Shown: positions 17,991-36,463, numbered from the stretch's first letter. The stretch: 36,849 nucleotides of DNA from a virus (IMGVR_UViG_2529292835_000026:1-36849); one strand, 5' to 3'. The notes: generated from the sequence alone by a model not told the origin. Translations and numbers: made by a program.

Positions 17991-19049
17991 TTACGCTCCG
18001 GTTTCTGCTGCGGCGGCGCTAAAATCGCCAATCTGGATGTTTTCCACCAGTGCAGCGCAGCGGTAGTCCTCAACCACATAGGCTTCGTTAACGGATTCAA
18101 AGTTTTCAATCCGGTCACGTTTCGGGTTGTCGATAACTGAACGGCGGCGGGTGTCTTCCTGCCAGTAGATGGACAGGTTATCCAGACGGGTGATCAGCAG
18201 TGCATTCGGCGGGAAGAACGGCGCACGCACGGCCTGCAGGCCACCCATGCGTTTCTGACTGATGATCATATCGGCAGCCAGTTTTTCACTGTTTTCCTGC
18301 TCTTTGTTGACCAGCGGGAAATACTTGTCAGACAGCAGTTCACGACCGCAAATCACCACCAGATCGTCATCGTCCTGGTAGACCACGTCGATAAGCTCAT
18401 TGACGGCATCCATCACCACAGCGTCCAGGTTGGCATATTCGCCACCTTTACCGACTTTCACCGCGCCCGGTGTGGTTTCACCGCCCGTGGTGGTGCTGCC
18501 CATGACGTGATCCGGTGCATCCTCACGGATTTTCTGCAGCCAGCCTTTGTTCACATCCTGCAGCAGCGGGTTTTCGCTACGGTTGGAGGTTTTCGCACGC
18601 TTCACGCCGTTAAAGCCGATCATGATGCGGTCCAGTGCCTGACGTTTCACGATGGCGTTACGGATACGCACCTGGAAATCCTGAAACTTCGCCCACAGGT
18701 CCAGCTTCGCGTAGGTCAGCACCGTGTCAAAGTTGGTCTGTTCGCATTTGTATTCCACATCGACCATCAGCGTCGGATCGACAGGTTCTCGCTCTTTCGC
18801 GGTGGTATCAGTGGTTCCGGCAATGGTGCTGCCAACACCCAGCCCCAGCAACTGACCAGACTGCTCAGTCACTGGCGTGACGTTAATCAGCGTCAGGAAA
18901 GAGGCGGACTGCTGGATCTGGTCTTCCAGCGTCTGCTGCACGGACGGCTCTACGGTGAACTTGCTGGACAGTTCTTCAACTGCCACACCGTTCAGACGCG
19001 CCAGCTGCTGCAGGTAAGCGTTAAAAGCAAAGCGGGTATTCTTCTTCAT
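17991..19049 (-). CDS. N: Major capsid protein gpN-like
   Basis: 352-aa ORF downstream of the scaffold gene. Confidence 0.9.
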   Translation of the reverse strand: MKKNTRFAFNAYLQQLARLNGVAVEELSSKFTVEPSVQQTLEDQIQQSASFLTLINVTPVTEQSGQLLGLGVGSTIAGTTDTTAKEREPVDPTLMVDVEYKCEQTNFDTVLTYAKLDLWAKFQDFQVRIRNAIVKRQALDRIMIGFNGVKRAKTSNRSENPLLQDVNKGWLQKIREDAPDHVMGSTTTGGETTPGAVKVGKGGEYANLDAVVMDAVNELIDVVYQDDDDLVVICGRELLSDKYFPLVNKEQENSEKLAADMIISQKRMGGLQAVRAPFFPPNALLITRLDNLSIYWQEDTRRRSVIDNPKRDRIENFESVNEAYVVEDYRCAALVENIQIGDFSAAAAETGA

Positions 19050-22873: not shown

Positions 22874-23545
22874 TTAAAAACCAAGCTCATCTCTGATTCT
22901 TGGGAATTTTTTCATTACTCGAATATCAGTTAATAAATGCCAACGCCAAAAAACAGAAAATGGATATGATACATTACACATTGGCTTTAGCTTATTCTTG
23001 GCCTCTTGGATTTCTTGTTCTGTGCTTCGATCACTGACAAGTTTCATTCTCCAACCAGTAAAGTAAAACAATTCATCTTGTAACTTCTCTGAGAGATTTG
23101 CTCTTGTAATGCCCCTCAACCCCGTACTCGAAGAGTTAAAACACTTATCTAATAATTTGACTGTATTTAAAACCTTTCTACTTGGTCTTTTTCTTCTTGG
23201 GTATACTTGAACACCACTCGTTATAGCGTTCCCTGCGAGATGAACAATCTCACTGAAAACATCAACATCACTCTTTGTGCAATCAAGTAAGTTTTCAAAA
23301 GAATCACTTTTAATACTATTGCATCGACTGCAAGCTAAAAATAGATTGTTCCAATCATATTTGAGCTCATCAAGATCACGATGTGGAATAAAATGTTCTA
23401 TCTCTGGATCCATAAGATTACCTTGCTCACAGAGATAACATTTTCCATGAAATATTTCGTCTAAAGCATTTACAACTGTTTTATGGTTATATACTTTTCT
23501 CGACAAGCATTGAGGTGCAGGAATATTTCTAGTAACATTAAACAT
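22874..23545 (-). CDS. HNH endonuclease, Septu PtuB-like
   Basis: HGKCYLCE ... EIEHFIPH ... NNLFLACSRCNSIKS = HNH motif; overlaps the upstream ATPase gene by 8 nt; AT-rich. Confidence 0.75.
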   Translation of the reverse strand: MFNVTRNIPAPQCLSRKVYNHKTVVNALDEIFHGKCYLCEQGNLMDPEIEHFIPHRDLDELKYDWNNLFLACSRCNSIKSDSFENLLDCTKSDVDVFSEIVHLAGNAITSGVQVYPRRKRPSRKVLNTVKLLDKCFNSSSTGLRGITRANLSEKLQDELFYFTGWRMKLVSDRSTEQEIQEAKNKLKPMCNVSYPFSVFWRWHLLTDIRVMKKFPRIRDELGF

Positions 23546-24791
23546 CGTCTTCCCTTTCGCTATAATCTAAATATTTACTCTTAGCGATCATAAAAGCTGC
23601 TTTTGAACTTTTATCAAGAAAATCAATACTCTTCTGTAACGTTTTCATTATAGAATGAAATCTATCGTCGAAGACATTATTTTCTACTAAAGTCATTAAT
23701 TCTTTAACTAATGCATTTAGCTTATCCGAAGATACATCCTCACCCAACAATCCCTTTATAATTGCTGTGTAAGAATACAATGATAAATCACCCATCTGAT
23801 CCAATGTTGAGAGATTAAATATAATCGCATCAGATACTGATTGGATTACGAAAGGTGAATGCGTAGAAACAATAAATTGTATTTGCGGAAAAGATGATGA
23901 AAAAAAACTAAATACTTTCTTTTGCAATGTTACATGAAGATGAGCATCAATTTCATCAATAAGTACTATCCCTGTCATATCATGTTTTCTGATTTTATCA
24001 AGCTCTGCTTTTATCAATAAATCAGTATAAATAGAAAGAATTGATGAAAAACCAGATGACAACTTATCAAGTCCAAATGGTTCCTTATTATTTTGTAAAA
24101 GATAGATTTTCAACTTGTCGAGATCAAAATCCATTCTAATACTTTCATCTTCAAAAAGTTCTTTTAAGTCATCATTAATACTCTCAATAATATCAAAGGC
24201 TCTTTTATAGTCATCATCCTTGCCCACTCCCTTACTGACTAAAGCATAATTCCACAATGTAACTATGTATCTTTCAAAATACATACCAGCATCAATCTTA
24301 GAATTATTTCTCTGTGCGTTCCCATACTCAGTTAACAACAAATCGAGGCTGCTAATCTTACCATCATTTTTTATTTTCGCTTCTCGAATAGCAGGAAATA
24401 ATCTTATAATTGATTTTTTCTTTTTTGCAGCAACCCTGAAATCAACCACATCATTAAAAGTAATATCAAAGCTCTCAAATTCTTTTAATTTTTCTTTCAG
24501 TCTCTCAATTTCTTCGTTTAAATAGCTATAATTACCATCCCCTCTATTTGAATACTTTAAGTTTTCTTGACTGGAATTCAATTCCTTTTGTAGCTGCTCC
24601 TTAGTATAAGGATCATGTGAATTAATCGATTTTTCTATAAACTCATAAATATTCTCGATCAACCTAGTTTTACCAGAGCCATTATCTCCTGATATTATTA
24701 GATTCTTACCATCAAGATTTAATGTGTAAGGCTCATCGTTCCTTTTAAAGAAGATAGTTTCGATGAAATGTCGCATTATTCCTCCCGTCAT
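23538..24791 (-). CDS. ABC/SMC-type ATPase, Septu PtuA-like
   Basis: Walker A GDNGSGKT, ABC signature LSSGFSS, Walker B VLIDEIDAHLH, H-loop STHSP. Alternative start at 24776 (MRHF...) has a GGGAGGA Shine-Dalgarno. Confidence 0.75.
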   Translation of the reverse strand: MTGGIMRHFIETIFFKRNDEPYTLNLDGKNLIISGDNGSGKTRLIENIYEFIEKSINSHDPYTKEQLQKELNSSQENLKYSNRGDGNYSYLNEEIERLKEKLKEFESFDITFNDVVDFRVAAKKKKSIIRLFPAIREAKIKNDGKISSLDLLLTEYGNAQRNNSKIDAGMYFERYIVTLWNYALVSKGVGKDDDYKRAFDIIESINDDLKELFEDESIRMDFDLDKLKIYLLQNNKEPFGLDKLSSGFSSILSIYTDLLIKAELDKIRKHDMTGIVLIDEIDAHLHVTLQKKVFSFFSSSFPQIQFIVSTHSPFVIQSVSDAIIFNLSTLDQMGDLSLYSYTAIIKGLLGEDVSSDKLNALVKELMTLVENNVFDDRFHSIMKTLQKSIDFLDKSSKAAFMIAKSKYLDYSEREDDV

Positions 24792-25228: not shown

Positions 25229-25882
25229 ATGAATAAATACAAACTTTTCGCACAGCTATCAAGATATTCATTTGAAGCGCAGATTGATGATTTCGAAAAA
25301 TATATCCTAGGAGCAGGCGGCCAAAACAGAGTTGACTTATCGGAATTAAAAAAAGCATATGAAGATGAAAAAAAGAATGCTCCTGACGATTATATTAATT
25401 ACTTAGAAGACTATTATTCAGAGCAATATGATTTCTTAGTTAACATACAACCAAATATTTTTAATAAATCTGCTTTGGTATCTTTATACTCATGCTTAGA
25501 GCACAACCTAAACGACTATTGCAATATATGTCAAAGGATTGTAAACACCAATATATCAGTAACCGATTTTAATGGTGATGGCATCCACAAAGCAAAAAGA
25601 TATTTAACAAAATTAATGGATATAAACTTTGGCCTGTCACAAGAGTGGCGATTCATGACAGAGTTTAACAAAGTAAGGAATTGCATAGTTCATGCTAATG
25701 GAGACATTAAAAAAATGAGCACAGCTGTAGCCTTAAAAGATATCATTGATAAAACACCTACTCTTTCATTAAACAATGAAAATAATATAATAATCTCCTT
25801 AAATTATTTAAAAGATACTATCACAAAAATTAGAAAACTCTTTCAATGGTTATATACACATCTGGATCAATCATCGAAATGA
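25229..25882 (+). CDS. Uncharacterised 217-aa protein with HEPN-like R-x4-H motif (candidate defence/abortive-infection RNase)
   Basis: AAGGAA upstream of ATG; very AT-rich; motif EFNKVRNCIVHANGD fits the HEPN R-x4-6-H signature; no other recognisable domain. Confidence 0.5.
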   Translation: MNKYKLFAQLSRYSFEAQIDDFEKYILGAGGQNRVDLSELKKAYEDEKKNAPDDYINYLEDYYSEQYDFLVNIQPNIFNKSALVSLYSCLEHNLNDYCNICQRIVNTNISVTDFNGDGIHKAKRYLTKLMDINFGLSQEWRFMTEFNKVRNCIVHANGDIKKMSTAVALKDIIDKTPTLSLNNENNIIISLNYLKDTITKIRKLFQWLYTHLDQSSK

Positions 25883-26134: not shown

Positions 26135-27001
26135 TTAGATGGCTTTGCTTCGATATTCAATTTCTAAAATCGCCTTTGTCATTGCCGCAATAGTTATAGC
26201 TTCTACCATAGTCAATTCAGGCTTGTTCAAGCTTCCGTGTCCAGCAGTAGGTAATTTGTTACGTAAATCATAAATATCTTTAACAGCATCAATAAGATTC
26301 TTAGGTAATTTTGACATTTTTTCGAACTGTTTAAAAAAACCACCCAATGACTCATTTGCCACATTCGGGTTTTGAGTGATTTCCTTAGCCATAGTTTCTA
26401 AAACATTAGAGGCTGCGTGCAGTGCACCTGCCGGATCATTATTATCCAAGCAATTATTCATTCTATCTATTTGCTGAACGATATTTGGGTGCAATCTCTT
26501 TAAGTAATCACTAGCCAATTCTTCATTGAAATTTTTGACACTTTCAAAAACATCGCAATCTAAATAAAATTTAGGATTGACTGACATCCATGTATATTTC
26601 CAATCATTTTCTAAATTATCTTTTTCCGCAATCCGCCTGCCAGTGTCCTGATCTATCTCATCAACATATTTACACATATAATCGGCGTAGTAGTGTAAAT
26701 ATCTAAATGATATTTCTGGGCAAAAATTACTAACTGATGCAAGGCCGCCATATTCTTTTGTAGTAACTGTAGGGACTTCTTCATCACATAAAGATGAGAA
26801 AGTGGTTCTTTCCCAAAATTCGCCCAACTCTTTTTCTTTCCTAGTTGCCATACCAGCTATCATATTGATGCTTGAGAGCAAAACTACACTCTGATAGTAT
26901 CGAGGACATCTGTATGAACTAGCATATGGGCATATTGATGATGCTTTACGATTAATACGCTCTTTTTCCCACCAATTTTTATCAGGAATAATTCTTTGCA
27001 T
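26135..27001 (-). CDS. Uncharacterised 288-aa protein, candidate defence cargo
   Basis: Long AT-rich ORF convergent with the 217-aa gene; Cys-rich N-terminus (CPYASSYRCPRYY); no family recognised by eye; no clear Shine-Dalgarno at the first ATG. Confidence 0.5.
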   Translation of the reverse strand: MQRIIPDKNWWEKERINRKASSICPYASSYRCPRYYQSVVLLSSINMIAGMATRKEKELGEFWERTTFSSLCDEEVPTVTTKEYGGLASVSNFCPEISFRYLHYYADYMCKYVDEIDQDTGRRIAEKDNLENDWKYTWMSVNPKFYLDCDVFESVKNFNEELASDYLKRLHPNIVQQIDRMNNCLDNNDPAGALHAASNVLETMAKEITQNPNVANESLGGFFKQFEKMSKLPKNLIDAVKDIYDLRNKLPTAGHGSLNKPELTMVEAITIAAMTKAILEIEYRSKAI

Positions 27002-27439: not shown

Positions 27440-27484
27440 GTTGCCCAAACTCCCCCCAACAGGATAAATCCTCTTGGGGGCAAC
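27440..27484. other. Extended G/C-rich stem-loop just downstream of the DinI-like gene
   Basis: CCCCCCAA ... TTGGGGG with inner AGGAT/ATCCT pairing, flanked by GTTGCCC/GGGCAAC; no clear U-tract. Confidence 0.3.
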
Positions 27485-27489
27485 GTTTC

Positions 27490-27723
27490 TTAATGCAGCC
27501 AGCTGTCGTCTTCCCACACCTTCTGCATAATTTTCAGCACTTGTTTTCTTTCTTCGTCCAGTTGCAGTCCGGTCAGTTCCACACCGTTAGAGCTACCTTT
27601 GCGGATACGAATTACCGTTTTGGGATACAGGGGGCGCAGATTGCGGTAAAGCTCGGATTCAAGGGCATCCAGGGTAGACTGGCTAATCTTCTGCTCTTTA
27701 TCGATCATTATTTCAATGCGCAT
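27490..27723 (-). CDS. DinI-family protein
   Basis: MRIEIMIDK...LDALESELYRNLRPLYP...VIRIRKGSSNGVEL...ERKQVLKIMQKVWEDDSW aligns with DinI; GAGGTGA Shine-Dalgarno before the internal Met used as start. Confidence 0.8.
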   Translation of the reverse strand: MRIEIMIDKEQKISQSTLDALESELYRNLRPLYPKTVIRIRKGSSNGVELTGLQLDEERKQVLKIMQKVWEDDSWLH

Positions 27724-27733
27724 AAAAGTCACC

Positions 27734-27922
27734 TCAGCTGATGACATCCATTGAGCGGTTGTATTCGTGGGTTCTGATTTTTGCCATGAGTTCATCAGTC
27801 AATTCAGAAACCCACTGCAGAGCCAGCCCCTTCTCTTCATCACTACACTCACTAGCCGCTACAAGCTTAAGAAAAAAATCAATGCGCTGGAGCTTCAAAG
27901 ACTCCAAAAAATAGTCCTGCAT
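27734..27922 (-). CDS. Small LexA-regulated ORF (62 aa), candidate Tum-like antirepressor component
   Basis: AGGAGG upstream of ATG at 27922; LexA box 45-60 bp upstream; directly followed by the DinI-like gene. The longer ORF start would include the LexA box. Confidence 0.45.
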   Translation of the reverse strand: MQDYFLESLKLQRIDFFLKLVAASECSDEEKGLALQWVSELTDELMAKIRTHEYNRSMDVIS

Positions 27923-27965
27923 CTTTCCTCCTATAACACCACGAGCAATACTGTATACATGACCA

Positions 27966-27981
27966 CTGTTTATATTTACAG
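27966..27981. promoter_or_regulatory. LexA (SOS) box
   Basis: CTGTTTATATTTACAG = CTGT-N8-ACAG with AT-rich spacer, embedded in cCACTGTTTATATTTACAGTAt. Confidence 0.75.
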
Positions 27982-28075
27982 TATATAATAATCTTACTGA
28001 TGTAAAACGTTTTTTTACGTTCATCAGCCTGATATGCCTGGTATTATTAAGAGCACGAATTGTTAATCCGCGTAA

Positions 28076-30490
28076 TTAATACAGGTTCCGCCACTTATCA
28101 TCTTCCTGTAAACGCTGATTCCGATAGAAGATACGCAGGCCAGCCCCTGACGGAATACTGCCTCCGCGAAGGAGTAAATCGACCTCTTTCTCGCTGCCAT
28201 CAAATCCTCTGGACTTCAGTTCATAGACGAGCTGCTGTCGCTGATGGTCTGTAATTCGCTGTTTGTAGTCTTTGCGCCGTTTCGGTTTCACCTGGCGTAA
28301 CCTTGCAGCCAGTTCCCGACGCTCTTTTTTGCTCATACTGTGCAGATAATCGTGCAACTCCTTGTCATCCTGGCGGGTAATGTCAGTTCTGGTGTCCCCA
28401 TCAGCTGATTTATCTTTCTCCTGTTGGTTCAAATTTTCAGCAAGGGGACAGTTATTGCCACGAGTCCAAGGGGCGCAAGCGCCCTTGTCGGCTGCCGCCT
28501 CCTGAACGTCAACGGCCTTACGAACCATTTTCCACTTCACTGCATGAGTGCAGATCTTGCCCTCTGCAATGGGTGACCAGATGCCATAAATACGAATACC
28601 GTGATCGCCATAGGCGGTCGGCTCTTCGTTGATTTCATAAGCAGTTCTGATGAGGTGATATTTGCGGGGAACCAGTACGCCGCCCTGCTTCATGATGTAG
28701 GTGGCAAAACAACCAGCATCAGCAGCAGCCAGGATTGCATCAAGGCGCGGGTTATCCAGTACCGGCGCACCTGCTTTTTTGTCCCCCTGCTGCCTTGCCG
28801 CCTGACCAGCCAGCAATCGCAGTTCACGGTAAGCCTGACGCCCCGGAATGCCAAAGAAGCGGAATTGCTGAACACGATGCAGAGACGCCCAAGCATTAAC
28901 GTATTCAGCGTTATCACGCAGGGATTTACCCGTTTCCTTGCTGATCTCGCCAGCCAGACCACGCCCGTCAATGTTCTTACTGATGTATTTCGCGATGTAG
29001 CTTGTTGGCGTACCTTTGCGCGGGTTTATCAGCTCGGACTTAAAGCGTGGTCCCGTGTTATTACCCAGCTCCTCGCGGTCTTCACGAATGGCAAACTTAC
29101 GCAACAAAGCAGTAATGGCGCGGCGATCTTTTTTGCGCATAAAACACAACAGGTGCCAGTGAACTGTACCGTCGTGATGCGGCTCAGCCACCCGCACGCC
29201 ATACCAGCGCAACCCGGCTTTGTGCATCGCCTTACGAAATGCAGCAAACATACCGACCAGATAATCACTGCTTTGTCTTACCGTCGCATTTGTCCAGGTT
29301 GGGTTGGGCCTGCCGTTATTTAGCGTGGAATGGAAACGTGACGGACAGGTGATGGTGTAGAAAACGGCGCAGTCACCGCGCATTTCCGCGATAAGCTCCA
29401 GACCTTTAACACAGGCCATCATCTCATTGCGGCGATGCGCAGGGTTGCTGCTGCTGGCGTTTACCACATCCTCCATGTCCAGCGTGTCGCCGTCTTCGTT
29501 CACCAGTTCATGAGAACGGAAAAACTCCAGCGACTTACGGCGCTGCTCACGTTTATGCATCACGGCTTCATAGCTGACATAAGGAGATGCTTTTTTGCTA
29601 ACCAGGCAGACAGCGCGCAACTGCTCTTCCCGCCATTCGCAACGCATCTTCCATAATTTCCGATACCACCAGTCGGCGCACAACATACGCGCCAGCGAAC
29701 CCGGAATGAGTTCATAGGGCACGGGTTTACGGCGGTTTCTTTTCCGACGGAGTTGCTCAAACGCAGGCGGGATAACATCCAGACGCAGGGTTTCCGCTGC
29801 CACCTTTTCCCACGTCTTGCGGATTTCTTCTGGCTTAACGTCATCGGTGGCATACAAATCACCACAAGCGGCATCAAGGCACATGCTCATATGCGCAGCA
29901 ACAAGGGTAGACAGACGCTTCACCTGATCCTGACTCATTTCAGGCAGGATCAGCAGGCCGTCCAGCCCTTCATGGCTTGCCATAAAGCGAAAAGAAGTGG
30001 ATAGCTGACAGTCGCGTACATGCTCCAGTCGTTCCAGACATGGCTTAATCGTCTCACGCAAATAGCGGGAATAAGCCTTTGGCCTGCCCAGGCTGCTGAA
30101 GTATTCAATACGTTGCATCAGCGGCTTGCTGATATGGGAAGGCTGGGCATTGACGTCCGCCAGAATGACCATATCTGGATTAAAACGCTGCTGCTCATGC
30201 GCCAGCTTTGCCCGGCTAATGAGTTTATCCTGCTCCATTTCGCGTTGGACAGGATCACGGGATTCATTAAAGAAATAACGCTCCCAGACCTGATCACTCA
30301 GTGCCTCGCGGCGCAGTTGTTCCAGCTCGTTATCGACAGCGTACAGAGTGATCAGGTTTGAAAGCGCAGAAACCGGCGCAACTTCCGCCGGGTCCAGATA
30401 AGGGTTAATGGCCTTTTTCGGGCTGTTCCATGAGAATGCTGCGGCGACCTCGTTAAAGCCGCTGCAGTTGTTCATATCAGCATGGCTCAT
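28076..30490 (-). CDS. A: Replication initiation endonuclease gpA-like (rolling circle)
   Basis: ...[19 protein letters not shown]... and ...[12 protein letters not shown]... match conserved P2 gpA motifs; 804 aa. Confidence 0.9.
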
Positions 30491-32757: not shown

Positions 32758-32931
32758 TTGGACTTTCTCCGTTTCCTCGTGATCAATTCAGACAGCAATT
32801 CATCTTGTGAACGGCACGGATGCCAGCGTTTACCATCCTCACCCATGATCCAGCCGTGACCGTAGTGCATTGCCGGGCTTTGTTTTACCAGCAGCGATGC
32901 AAATGATGGTTCTTTCGTCAGCATAAGCACC

Positions 32932-33441
32932 TCACAGCAAACCGAATGAAGCACCGAGGCCAGTCACGGTATCAACTGCACTCGCCATCGCAGGATTAGC
33001 CTGTAAACGGGCCTGCAATGAAACAGCCGCCAGCGCCATCAGTCGTGTTACAGAGTTAATGCTGCTGATAGCATCACGACGACCGGCACAGGTTTTTACA
33101 TCGCCAGATACCGCACCTGCAGCAACACGCCCGATCTCTGCGGTTGCACTCATGACGTAATGTGGCAGTTTCTCTTTTGCCACCTCATTAATCGGTACAC
33201 ATGGCAGACAATGAATCTGTGCCAGAAAACCATCTACCAGCGTTGAATCTTCAGTCAGATCGGTAAGCAGCCAGATTTCTGGTGCGGTTAATAAATGAGG
33301 CTGAGCTGGGTTCAGCTTGTTCCGCAGAATCTGCACATTCATGCCTGCACGTTCTGCCAGTTGCACCAGGTTGTGACGCAGTGCAAAAGCCCTACAGGCT
33401 TCATCGAAATGCGGATGTTTGGAAATCTTGTAATCAAACAT
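32932..33441 (-). CDS. 186 CII-like early regulator (169 aa) or B-like early protein
   Basis: Second gene of the rightward early operon after the Apl/Cox-like gene; helix-turn-helix-like segment [19 protein letters not shown]; length equals 186 CII (169 aa). Confidence 0.5.
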
Positions 33442-33837: not shown

Positions 33838-34470
33838 ATGTTAAACATCAGAATGGGTTCCGATACGGGAGGTAAGGCAGCTATTGAGAGGCTGCTTGAG
33901 GCTTATGGATTCACAACTAAGCAGGCATTAAGCGAGCACCTGAATGTCTCAAAAAGTACTATGGCAAACAGAGTGTTACGTGACAGTTTTCCTGCTGACT
34001 GGATAATTCAGTGTGCACTAGAAACCGGTGTTTCGTTACTTTGGTTAGCCACAGGACAGGGAAGCATGAAAGAAGGATACGAGCCTGAGAAAAGATCTCA
34101 TAACGAGAACAAACAAGCAATTAAACCGTTATCCAAACTCATAACTCCATCTATTCCTAAAGGAACCTTGGAAAATGGACAACTCAGTATTGATGAAGAG
34201 ATTTTCCTAGACCACAGCATATTACCTGCAGATTATGAAGAATCGATGTTCTTAGAAACCCCTACTGATTGTTATCTCATCGATAAATCAGTTAAACAAG
34301 TCAGCAATGGATTCTGGCTTATCAATATTGATGGAATGATTATTATTGCAAAAATCATGCGGATTCCCGGCAATAAGATTGTAGTAAATCAAGATGAAGC
34401 ATCTTTCGAGTGCTCTGCTGATGATGTGGAAGTTATTGGGCGTGCAGTCAAAGTAATAAAGAGTATCTAA
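33838..34470 (+). CDS. Immunity repressor (186 CI-like)
   Basis: N-terminal helix-turn-helix (TTKQALSEHLNVSKSTMANRV); located immediately upstream of int and divergent from the early operon. Confidence 0.8.
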   Translation: MLNIRMGSDTGGKAAIERLLEAYGFTTKQALSEHLNVSKSTMANRVLRDSFPADWIIQCALETGVSLLWLATGQGSMKEGYEPEKRSHNENKQAIKPLSKLITPSIPKGTLENGQLSIDEEIFLDHSILPADYEESMFLETPTDCYLIDKSVKQVSNGFWLINIDGMIIIAKIMRIPGNKIVVNQDEASFECSADDVEVIGRAVKVIKSI

Positions 34471-35499: not shown

Positions 35500-36168
35500 A
35501 TGAATAGCGAACTAGAGTTACTTATAAAAATATTATTCCCTTCCCTATCTGCCATTATATCCTTATTAGGGCTTAAAACAGGGTGGACTTATAAAAAAGA
35601 CAAACTATTCACATCACGTAAAAACATTAGCGAATTTTCATATCAGATGTATAAAAGCAGTGAAGATCCGACCTTCAAAAAACTGGCGGAAGATTACGGC
35701 ATTGCTGCATTAACCAAAGATAACACATTGACAAAAAAACAAAGATTAATATTACTCAACACAACAAACCCCGTTAGCGATATAGATAATTATTCCAAAT
35801 GTCAAAGTCTAATTTCCATTACCACCCATAAAGAAATATTCGCATGGAATAAAAAAAGATATAAATACAGCATATATAGAAAATTAATAAAAATCATAAC
35901 AACTCTAATTTACTTCATGAGCAGTCTCATCGTAGCACTTCCTTTCAGTTATTCTGTTGTAGTAAGTGCTAAGATGATGGAGAAGATAAACCATCTAACT
36001 ACTTGGCAATACTTTGGTTTAAGCAGCTATTTTGTGGTATCGGGAGTAGCAATATGCTTTATCTGCCTAGATAAGCTCTCCAAGATTAAGATCGCCGAGA
36101 GATTAATCGTTTCGAATAGGCGTTTAGGCGACAAATGCAGTGGCGGCACTTTGGCGGCAGAAAGTTAA
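35500..36168 (+). CDS. Membrane protein (222 aa), cargo between int and attR
   Basis: Very AT-rich; GAGGT upstream; three hydrophobic helices (N-terminal and two C-terminal); no family recognised. Confidence 0.6.
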   Translation: MNSELELLIKILFPSLSAIISLLGLKTGWTYKKDKLFTSRKNISEFSYQMYKSSEDPTFKKLAEDYGIAALTKDNTLTKKQRLILLNTTNPVSDIDNYSKCQSLISITTHKEIFAWNKKRYKYSIYRKLIKIITTLIYFMSSLIVALPFSYSVVVSAKMMEKINHLTTWQYFGLSSYFVVSGVAICFICLDKLSKIKIAERLIVSNRRLGDKCSGGTLAAES

Positions 36169-36357: not shown

Positions 36358-36463
36358 GGCTTTTTTACGTCTATTGTCGTCCAGTGAGAATTGCTGAGAA
36401 CTACGAGTTATGGCACCCTGAATGGGACCCACTAAGAAGGGTCCAAAAACCGAGGGTCCCAAA

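Follow-up and report, generated by a model that had tools for sequence, protein, structure and literature searches.

A two-gene module downstream of replication gene A

The locus described here lies in a window of 36.8 kb (36,849 nt, the whole stretch of viral DNA that was analyzed), and the region is 100% identical to several human ETEC chromosomes, e.g., ETEC-2265. At the identical ETEC locus, RefSeq annotates a P2-family prophage with intact structural, lysis, replication, and integration genes. Replication gene A (28076–30490, minus strand; Pfam Phage_GPA, E = 1.4e-127), a rolling-circle endonuclease gene of the P2 gpA/186 A type that RefSeq names "replication endonuclease", is followed directly on the same strand by a 153-nt intergenic region, a 62-aa ORF, and a DinI-family ORF, in this order. 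This order after gene A is that of phage 186, PSP3, and Fels-2, and the 2 ORFs have the position of a 186 Tum-type module, that is to say, of a separate transcription unit right after gene A. The annotation of PSP3 divides the corresponding region into tumA ("similar to 5' end 186 tum; UV induction of prophage") and tumB. Following this annotation, we designate the 62-aa ORF the tumA-type gene and the DinI ORF the tumB-type gene.

The tumA-type gene (27734–27922, minus strand) starts with an ATG at 27922, which is preceded by the Shine-Dalgarno sequence AGGAGGA (27926–27932), and ends with a TGA (27734–27736). No Pfam family matched its 62-aa product, which falls into PHROG class 698 ("unknown function") and is a "hypothetical protein" in the RefSeq annotation of the identical ETEC locus. 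An AlphaFold2 model of the protein is a two-helix hairpin with a mean pLDDT of 88; a sequence search for solved structures related to TumA returned none.

The tumB-type gene (27490–27723, minus strand; ATG at 27723, stop codon at 27490–27492) begins after an intergenic gap of 10 nt and encodes a 77-aa protein, for which RefSeq gives "DinI-like family protein". The protein matches the Pfam DinI family (PF06183) over profile positions 1–63 of 63 with an E value of 5.6e-22 and a score of 78.3 bits (cut-off 24.2), and matches the E. coli DinI structure (PDB 1GHH; E = 2e-5). The likeness to E. coli DinI, which extends to family and fold, includes an acidic C-terminal helix motif that reads WEDDSW here and WESADDW in E. 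coli DinI. By contrast with E. coli DinI, the protein is phage-borne and its gene is predicted to be co-transcribed with an antirepressor gene; RecA binding is suggested by its family membership. The sequence-only reading of this DNA had described a 62-aa ORF with a strong Shine-Dalgarno sequence, followed immediately by a DinI-family gene in a different frame and lying downstream of A at the site of 186 tum, and this description holds in each of its parts.

In both ORFs, third codon positions take most of the differences between relatives (for example, 21 of 33); therefore, both ORFs are protein-coding, and the substitution pattern points evidently to purifying selection. The Shine-Dalgarno sequence of the DinI ORF, GAGGTG (27730–27735), overlaps the TGA of the tumA-type gene. 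A six-pair hairpin followed by TTTTAT (27728–27745, minus strand) spans this stop codon and the DinI Shine-Dalgarno sequence. The hairpin is predicted in the window, in Fels-2, and in DuoHS (the E. coli HS prophage described below), an analogous pairing with a different sequence is predicted in 2 other phages, and none is predicted in the rest; it could, on the weak evidence of this folding pattern, be a translational-coupling or attenuation element. Rfam families were searched for between 27300 and 28200, and none was found.

On the 3' side of the DinI stop codon, a G+C-rich hairpin (27454–27480, minus strand; predicted fold −24.4 kcal/mol, z −2.3) is a possible terminator of the SOS transcript; it is without a strong U-tract and was not called by the terminator scanner. 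The DinI stop codon is the exact limit of the identity to Fels-2 and DuoHS, and variable cargo begins beyond it. Between the DinI and portal genes, this variable region contains a Septu anti-phage defence system (22874–24791, minus strand), composed of the AAA ATPase PtuA (23538–24791; PADLOC PDLC00268, E = 7e-122) and the HNH nuclease PtuB (22874–23545; PDLC00331, E = 2e-82), both on the minus strand. Two further cargo ORFs of 217 aa (25229–25882, plus strand) and 288 aa (26135–27001, minus strand) gave faint matches only (PADLOC RTasHEPN, E = 5e-5; Pfam Abi_C, E = 0.0017, below threshold) and may be uncharacterised defence genes. Elsewhere in the window, a 222-aa ORF (35500–36168, plus strand) on the 3' side of the prophage integrase appears hydrophobic by eye and had no match in PADLOC, the sole library tried, and a second integrase-domain gene, which starts at 36422 near the end of the window, may belong to an adjacent integrated element.

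Overlapping SOS boxes and a putative promoter

SOS box 1 (CTGTAAATATAAACAG; 27966–27981, minus strand; as a 20-mer, TACTGTAAATATAAACAGTG at 27964–27983) spans 44–59 nt upstream of the ATG of the 62-aa ORF and agrees at 17 of 20 positions with the SOS box consensus, which we take to be TACTGTATATATATACAGTA; it is the near-consensus box that had been read from the sequence at the outset. The sequence CTGTTTATATTTACAG at 27966–27981 is the single perfect CTGT-N8-ACAG in the window. This bare motif is not significant alone, being expected 0.51 times per window and found at least once in 38 of 100 shuffles. The match could on this count be a chance AT-rich palindrome in an ordinary constitutive promoter, a reading that we consider extremely improbable on 5 grounds: (i) the extended pattern TACTGT-W8-ACAGT occurred 0 times in the 100 shuffles; (ii) the position of box 1 is kept across genera, whereas its flanks diverge; (iii) the box is equivalent to the annotated LexA site of the 186 promoter p95; (iv) the double operator to which it belongs is common to colicin genes; and (v) induction of the orthologous prophage DuoHS needs cleavable LexA (described below). 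A LexA box precedes the tumA-type gene in all 9 of the phage loci compared, which represent several Peduoviridae genera, and was judged present in 17 of 20 divergent genomic loci (described below).

SOS box 2 (GTGGTCATGTATACAG; 27951–27966, minus strand) is a weaker, putative LexA site that shares one base with box 1. As a 20-mer it agrees with the consensus at 14 of 20 positions, compared with 15–16 in relatives, and it lies at an equal offset in 6 of 6 Fels-2-type loci, in which CAGTGG and TACAG are invariant. By contrast, a single box is found in 186, PSP3, ESSI-2, and other TumA subfamilies. The 2 overlapping 16-mers, CTG-N10-CAG and then GTG-N10-CAG, have the arrangement of the colicin-type double operator. 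The operator of the module is thus a colicin-type double overlapping SOS box, which by analogy may be occupied by 2 LexA dimers. The operators of colicin genes on Col plasmids have the same 31-nt CTGT-N8-ACAGTGG-N8-ACAG arrangement, which aligns base for base (2 promoters compared). The 56-nt operator region of Fels-2 has matches of 80–95% in more than 1,100 plasmids, most of which are mobilizable; in the 2 plasmids inspected, the matching operator lies just upstream of a colicin gene. In colicin genes, the binding of 2 LexA dimers causes tight repression and confines expression to few cells (PMC2994835). The likeness is confined to the operator: the spacing from the −35 hexamer to the operator differs, and here a prophage switch rather than a toxin gene would be controlled. 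Because both operator halves are constrained by LexA, the likeness may be convergent.

A consensus promoter scan of the locus called no sigma-70 site; therefore, the promoter was assigned by analogy with 186 p95 and by conservation. The putative −35 hexamer TTTACA (28001–28006, minus strand) is invariant in 6 of 6 Fels-2-type loci, and the putative −10 region TATACTGT (27978–27985, minus strand; TATACT or TACTGT), which overlaps SOS box 1, is kept in all of them. In these 6 loci, the spacer diverges in sequence but not in length, TTTACA being always separated from TATACT by 15 nt (from TACTGT by 17 nt). The annotated p95 of 186 is TTCACA-N18-TACTGT, in which the LexA site has the −10 hexamer TACTGT as its left arm, and the arrangement here is the same. 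We infer a p95-like promoter at TTTACA/TATACTGT, and its predicted overlap with the putative LexA operator is that of a 186 Tum-type module. Between the stop codon of gene A and the promoter of tumA, an inverted repeat was recognized by eye, CTGATGAACGT...ACGTTTTACATCAG (27997–28027, minus strand). The repeat overlaps the putative −35 hexamer and might serve as a terminator for the A transcript or as an insulator of the SOS promoter.

Relation of the two genes to phage 186 Tum

The DinI ORF is directly alignable to 186 Tum, the C-terminal part of which had been described as DinI-like in the sequence-only reading: the 77-aa protein aligns to Tum residues 71–145 with 41% identity (E = 3e-24). 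It is 76.6% identical to PSP3 TumB and covers only positions 72–148 of 151 in PHROG 189. These alignments place the Tum C-terminal half in a protein of its own.

The homology of the 62-aa protein to the N-terminal (antirepressor) part of Tum is at the profile level. BLASTP gave no alignment of the 62-aa protein with 186 Tum or PSP3 TumA, nor did it match PSP3 TumA with the N-terminal half of 186 Tum. A profile search of 1.84 billion representative proteins yielded 86 clusters of small stand-alone proteins, as judged by length and match position, and no TumA-DinI fusion was apparent among these clusters from lengths and match positions alone. A family profile built from 38 divergent members of this search placed residues 5–46 of the window protein on Tum residues 5–46 in hhalign (probability 95%, E = 3.4e-8). 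In addition, the family member P0152 forms a bridge, as it matches both the window ORF (52% identity, E = 8e-17) and Tum residues 5–51 (38% identity, E = 2e-11). Because of the profile match and this bridge, the 62-aa protein is a remote but real homologue of the N-terminal half of Tum, present here as a separate protein. The match of the window TumA family to PSP3 TumA was weak (hhalign E = 0.0026, probability 12%); the latter is a member of another subfamily, which is 186-like and has a single box.

The locus resembles 186 tum in that (i) the module lies directly after A, (ii) it is preceded by a putative counterpart of the annotated p95 promoter with its LexA site, and (iii) the DinI-like portion is C-terminal or downstream. 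It differs in that (i) 2 ORFs in different frames take the place of the single, fused 146-aa Tum polypeptide of 186, which has internal starts; (ii) 186 has a single SOS box, whereas here 2 boxes overlap; (iii) the operon of 186 continues downstream into orf97, whereas the present genes are followed by variable defence cargo; and (iv) the identity is low, namely 41% in the DinI half and detectable by profile only in the N-terminal half. The start codons of the 2 ORFs are 199 nt apart, which places them in different frames, as first read; in PSP3, the split tumA and tumB share a frame and are separated by a stop codon. The start-to-start offset in relatives is 199, 200, or 201 nt. Because the relative frame thus differs among relatives, a conserved frameshift fusion is impossible.

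Reading back from the DinI ATG, the same frame contains no stop for 24 codons, which is estimated to occur by accident with a chance of about 0.3. A 186-like fusion produced by programmed frameshifting or readthrough was considered unlikely and rejected, as no slippery site was seen and the relative frame is unconserved.

The homologies support the view that the 62-aa ORF and the DinI ORF represent the function of 186 tum divided into 2 genes, the locus being a split tumA/tumB variant. A split of tum in two has been described for Fels-2 and PSP3 (Lemire et al. 2011, PMC3121763). The sequence-only reading had offered a split Tum and an antirepressor plus a RecA modulator as 2 possibilities; these turn out to be the same thing, as PSP3 annotates such a pair as tumA and tumB. 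A comparable combination exists in the Gifsy and Fels-1 prophages (GfoA, GftA, and FsoA), in which a LexA-repressed operon encodes a small antirepressor and a DinI homologue. There, binding inactivates the repressor, and the antirepressors can act in trans on other prophages (PMC3121763). In these systems, by contrast, dinI comes first, and the prophages are lambdoid with unrelated repressors; on these features, rather than on a direct comparison with TumA, they were set apart from the present locus.

Orthologous modules, presumed repressor target, and the proposed switch

The DNA of the promoter, the operator, and both genes is approximately 97% identical to that of Fels-2 (STM2728 and STM2726.1) and of DuoHS, the prophage of E. 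coli HS, and many Peduoviridae of Klebsiella, Escherichia, and Salmonella match the module at this level, too. Fels-2 and DuoHS differ from this locus in the cargo on the 3' side of the DinI stop codon and in the CI immunity type. A 671-bp segment comprising the module matches 1,125 of 5,426 complete E. coli genomes, BL21 included; among the matches listed, the 62-aa gene is always annotated only as "hypothetical protein". In DuoHS, the 62-aa gene between gpA and the DinI-like gene is ECHS_RS04495, the product of which is identical to that of the window ORF at 61 of 62 residues, and the window promoter, operator, and both genes align to those of DuoHS almost without differences. Deletion of tum or a lexA(Ind-) allele each abolishes mitomycin-induced lysis and virion foci of DuoHS (Phollow study, PMC12055606), and the supplement of that study gives ECHS_RS04495 as the locus tag of tum (PMC12055606). 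The claim that such a prophage is SOS-inducible by the LexA route, which the sequence-only reading had made as a prediction, is thereby confirmed in a near-identical module. In Salmonella, every surviving lexA-null isolate had lost Fels-2, according to the summary of Bunny et al. 2002 in PMC12626290. The module is thus already known: it is the split tumA/tumB of Fels-2-type prophages, genetically characterised in near-identical orthologues, and the locus is the LexA-controlled tumA (antirepressor) and tumB (DinI-like) module of a Fels-2-like P2/186-family (Peduoviridae) prophage in an E. coli chromosome.

Which of the 2 proteins is the inducer was considered from the distribution of the genes. 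With an alignment of 10 sequences, 20 divergent loci were collected from species-representative genomes; since the search pattern excluded the subfamily of the window, these 20 loci are biased to one divergent subfamily. Of the 20, 19 have a gpA match upstream of the tumA-type gene, whereas 2 have a DinI gene downstream and 18 lack one; the 2 ESSI-2-type phages examined also have a tumA-type gene without a DinI partner. Because tumA-type genes occur without DinI in these loci and phages, TumA, not DinI, is the conserved core.

This distribution, in which tumA-type genes retain the LexA box and the position after gpA without DinI, speaks against the reading that the DinI-like TumB is the real inducer, acting through RecA or CI, with the 62-aa ORF as an accessory or leader peptide. 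Such a role for TumB could be argued from the facts that the DinI half is the part that databases recognise, that modulation of SOS induction is the role given to truncated C-terminal Tum products in the 186 annotation, and that the 2 genes are tightly coupled by the 10-nt gap and the hairpin over the DinI Shine-Dalgarno sequence. By way of translational coupling, the deletion of tum in DuoHS might in principle also disturb the DinI gene that follows. However, the DuoHS gene that was deleted as tum is the 62-aa ORF rather than the DinI gene; the product annotated as inhibiting CI in 186 is the full-length one, N-terminal half included; and the antirepressor activity of PSP3 resides in the upstream gene, as reported in the form of a personal communication (PMC3121763). 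We therefore consider an inducing role of TumB very unlikely and regard TumA as the inducer.

The presumed target of TumA is the CI immunity repressor (33838–34470, plus strand; Pfam Phage_CI_repr and Phage_CI_C), which has the same 2 domains as 186 CI and is 32% identical to it (E = 4e-36). In Pfam, no further match to this CI was found at E ≤ 0.01. Because only the 2 domains of 186 CI match, no self-cleavage (peptidase) domain was detected, and by its domains and homology the presumed cognate repressor is of the 186 type and predicted not to cleave itself, in agreement with the sequence-only reading, which had set induction through LexA against autocleavage of the repressor. 186 CI is inactivated by binding, not by cleavage (PMC3121763). 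The window CI is 41% identical to DuoHS CI and 60% identical to Fels-2 CI; hence, the action of TumA on the window CI is extrapolated.

This divergence of CI bears on another reading, namely that the module is an SOS-regulated accessory cassette that aids the host or modulates the host SOS response, the prophage being induced otherwise or never, as might follow from a defect in the prophage or from a mismatch between TumA and this CI. The CI is very unlike its counterparts in the phages that served to test the module, the early-operon gene of the Fil family is annotated as a pseudogene, and some related prophages have decayed boxes or a truncated tumA (L019, L024, L027, and L030). Set against these observations, the ORFs, the boxes, and the promoter hexamers are all intact and under purifying selection, the occurrence of an identical TumA with at least 5 CI types argues for a broad rather than a lost specificity, and the prophage genes at the identical ETEC locus are, as noted above, annotated as intact. 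We judge the accessory-cassette reading to be unlikely and prefer a functional induction switch.

The Fil-family (cell-division inhibitor) gene is a truncated pseudogene according to RefSeq (18793–18948 in locus L004, corresponding to approximately 32793–32948 of the window). Among related prophages (loci in GTDB genomes), the box region is replaced in L019, a box has a 1-nt deletion in L024, and CTG is changed to CTT in L027; tumA is truncated or frameshifted in L025, L027, and L030. These decayed switches may represent domestication by loss of inducibility.

The best explanation of the locus, which we hold to be highly probable, is an SOS induction operon in which a LexA-controlled TumA antirepressor and a TumB accessory protein serve a Fels-2-like prophage. 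In the lysogen, LexA would hold the double SOS operator over the −10/start region of the p95-like promoter. Upon DNA damage, RecA would be activated, LexA would cleave itself, and the promoter would fire. One short transcript would then give the 62-aa helical hairpin TumA and the 77-aa, DinI-like TumB. TumA would bind the 186-type CI and free the lytic promoter, so that excision and lytic growth proceed without CI cleavage. TumB, an accessory and not the trigger, probably modulates RecA filament activity and may tune the SOS signal.

Beyond the sequence-only reading, the analysis revealed the double SOS box, the dispensable DinI partner, and the contrast between a near-invariant TumA and a variable CI. 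Fels-2-type TumA is at least 98% identical among phages whose CIs are 40–60% identical to that of the window, and across those phages the N-terminal DNA-binding domains of CI are 57–80% identical, compared with 27–58% for the C-terminal domains; the identical TumA with at least 5 CI types was found in apparently complete phage records. Because TumA is near-invariant while the C-terminal domains of CI vary more than the N-terminal ones, TumA may recognise the N-terminal domain. A tentative proposal, which we consider possible but doubtful, is that TumA is a broad-spectrum antirepressor, maybe recognising the CI N-terminal domain, and that the double operator makes induction late and confined to a small subpopulation. 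In the literature searched, neither a broad-spectrum TumA nor a colicin-like timing of induction is stated. In Klebsiella phage 4LV2017 (NC_047818, 2903–3844; L036), which encodes an identical TumA, the CI appears to have 2 tandem N-terminal helix-turn-helix domains ahead of its C-terminal domain; a tblastn comparison of CI with the phage record gave 2 matching places.

The result is an annotation link, not a discovery, for a module that is under-annotated in databases. Because the database labels lack a function, the useful outcome is the assignment of the 62-aa family as TumA, the antirepressor half of Tum. Modest leads on induction timing and on cross-talk between prophages come from the double operator and from the pairing of an invariant TumA with variable CIs. 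If the tentative proposal is true, induction would, as for colicins, be late and confined to a small subpopulation, and an induced prophage could bring about the cross-induction of heteroimmune P2-like prophages or satellites that share its cell. Exposure to SOS-inducing agents, among them fluoroquinolones and mitomycin C, is predicted to mobilise the prophage together with its Septu cargo; LexA would mediate this effect, and the repressor would stay uncleaved.
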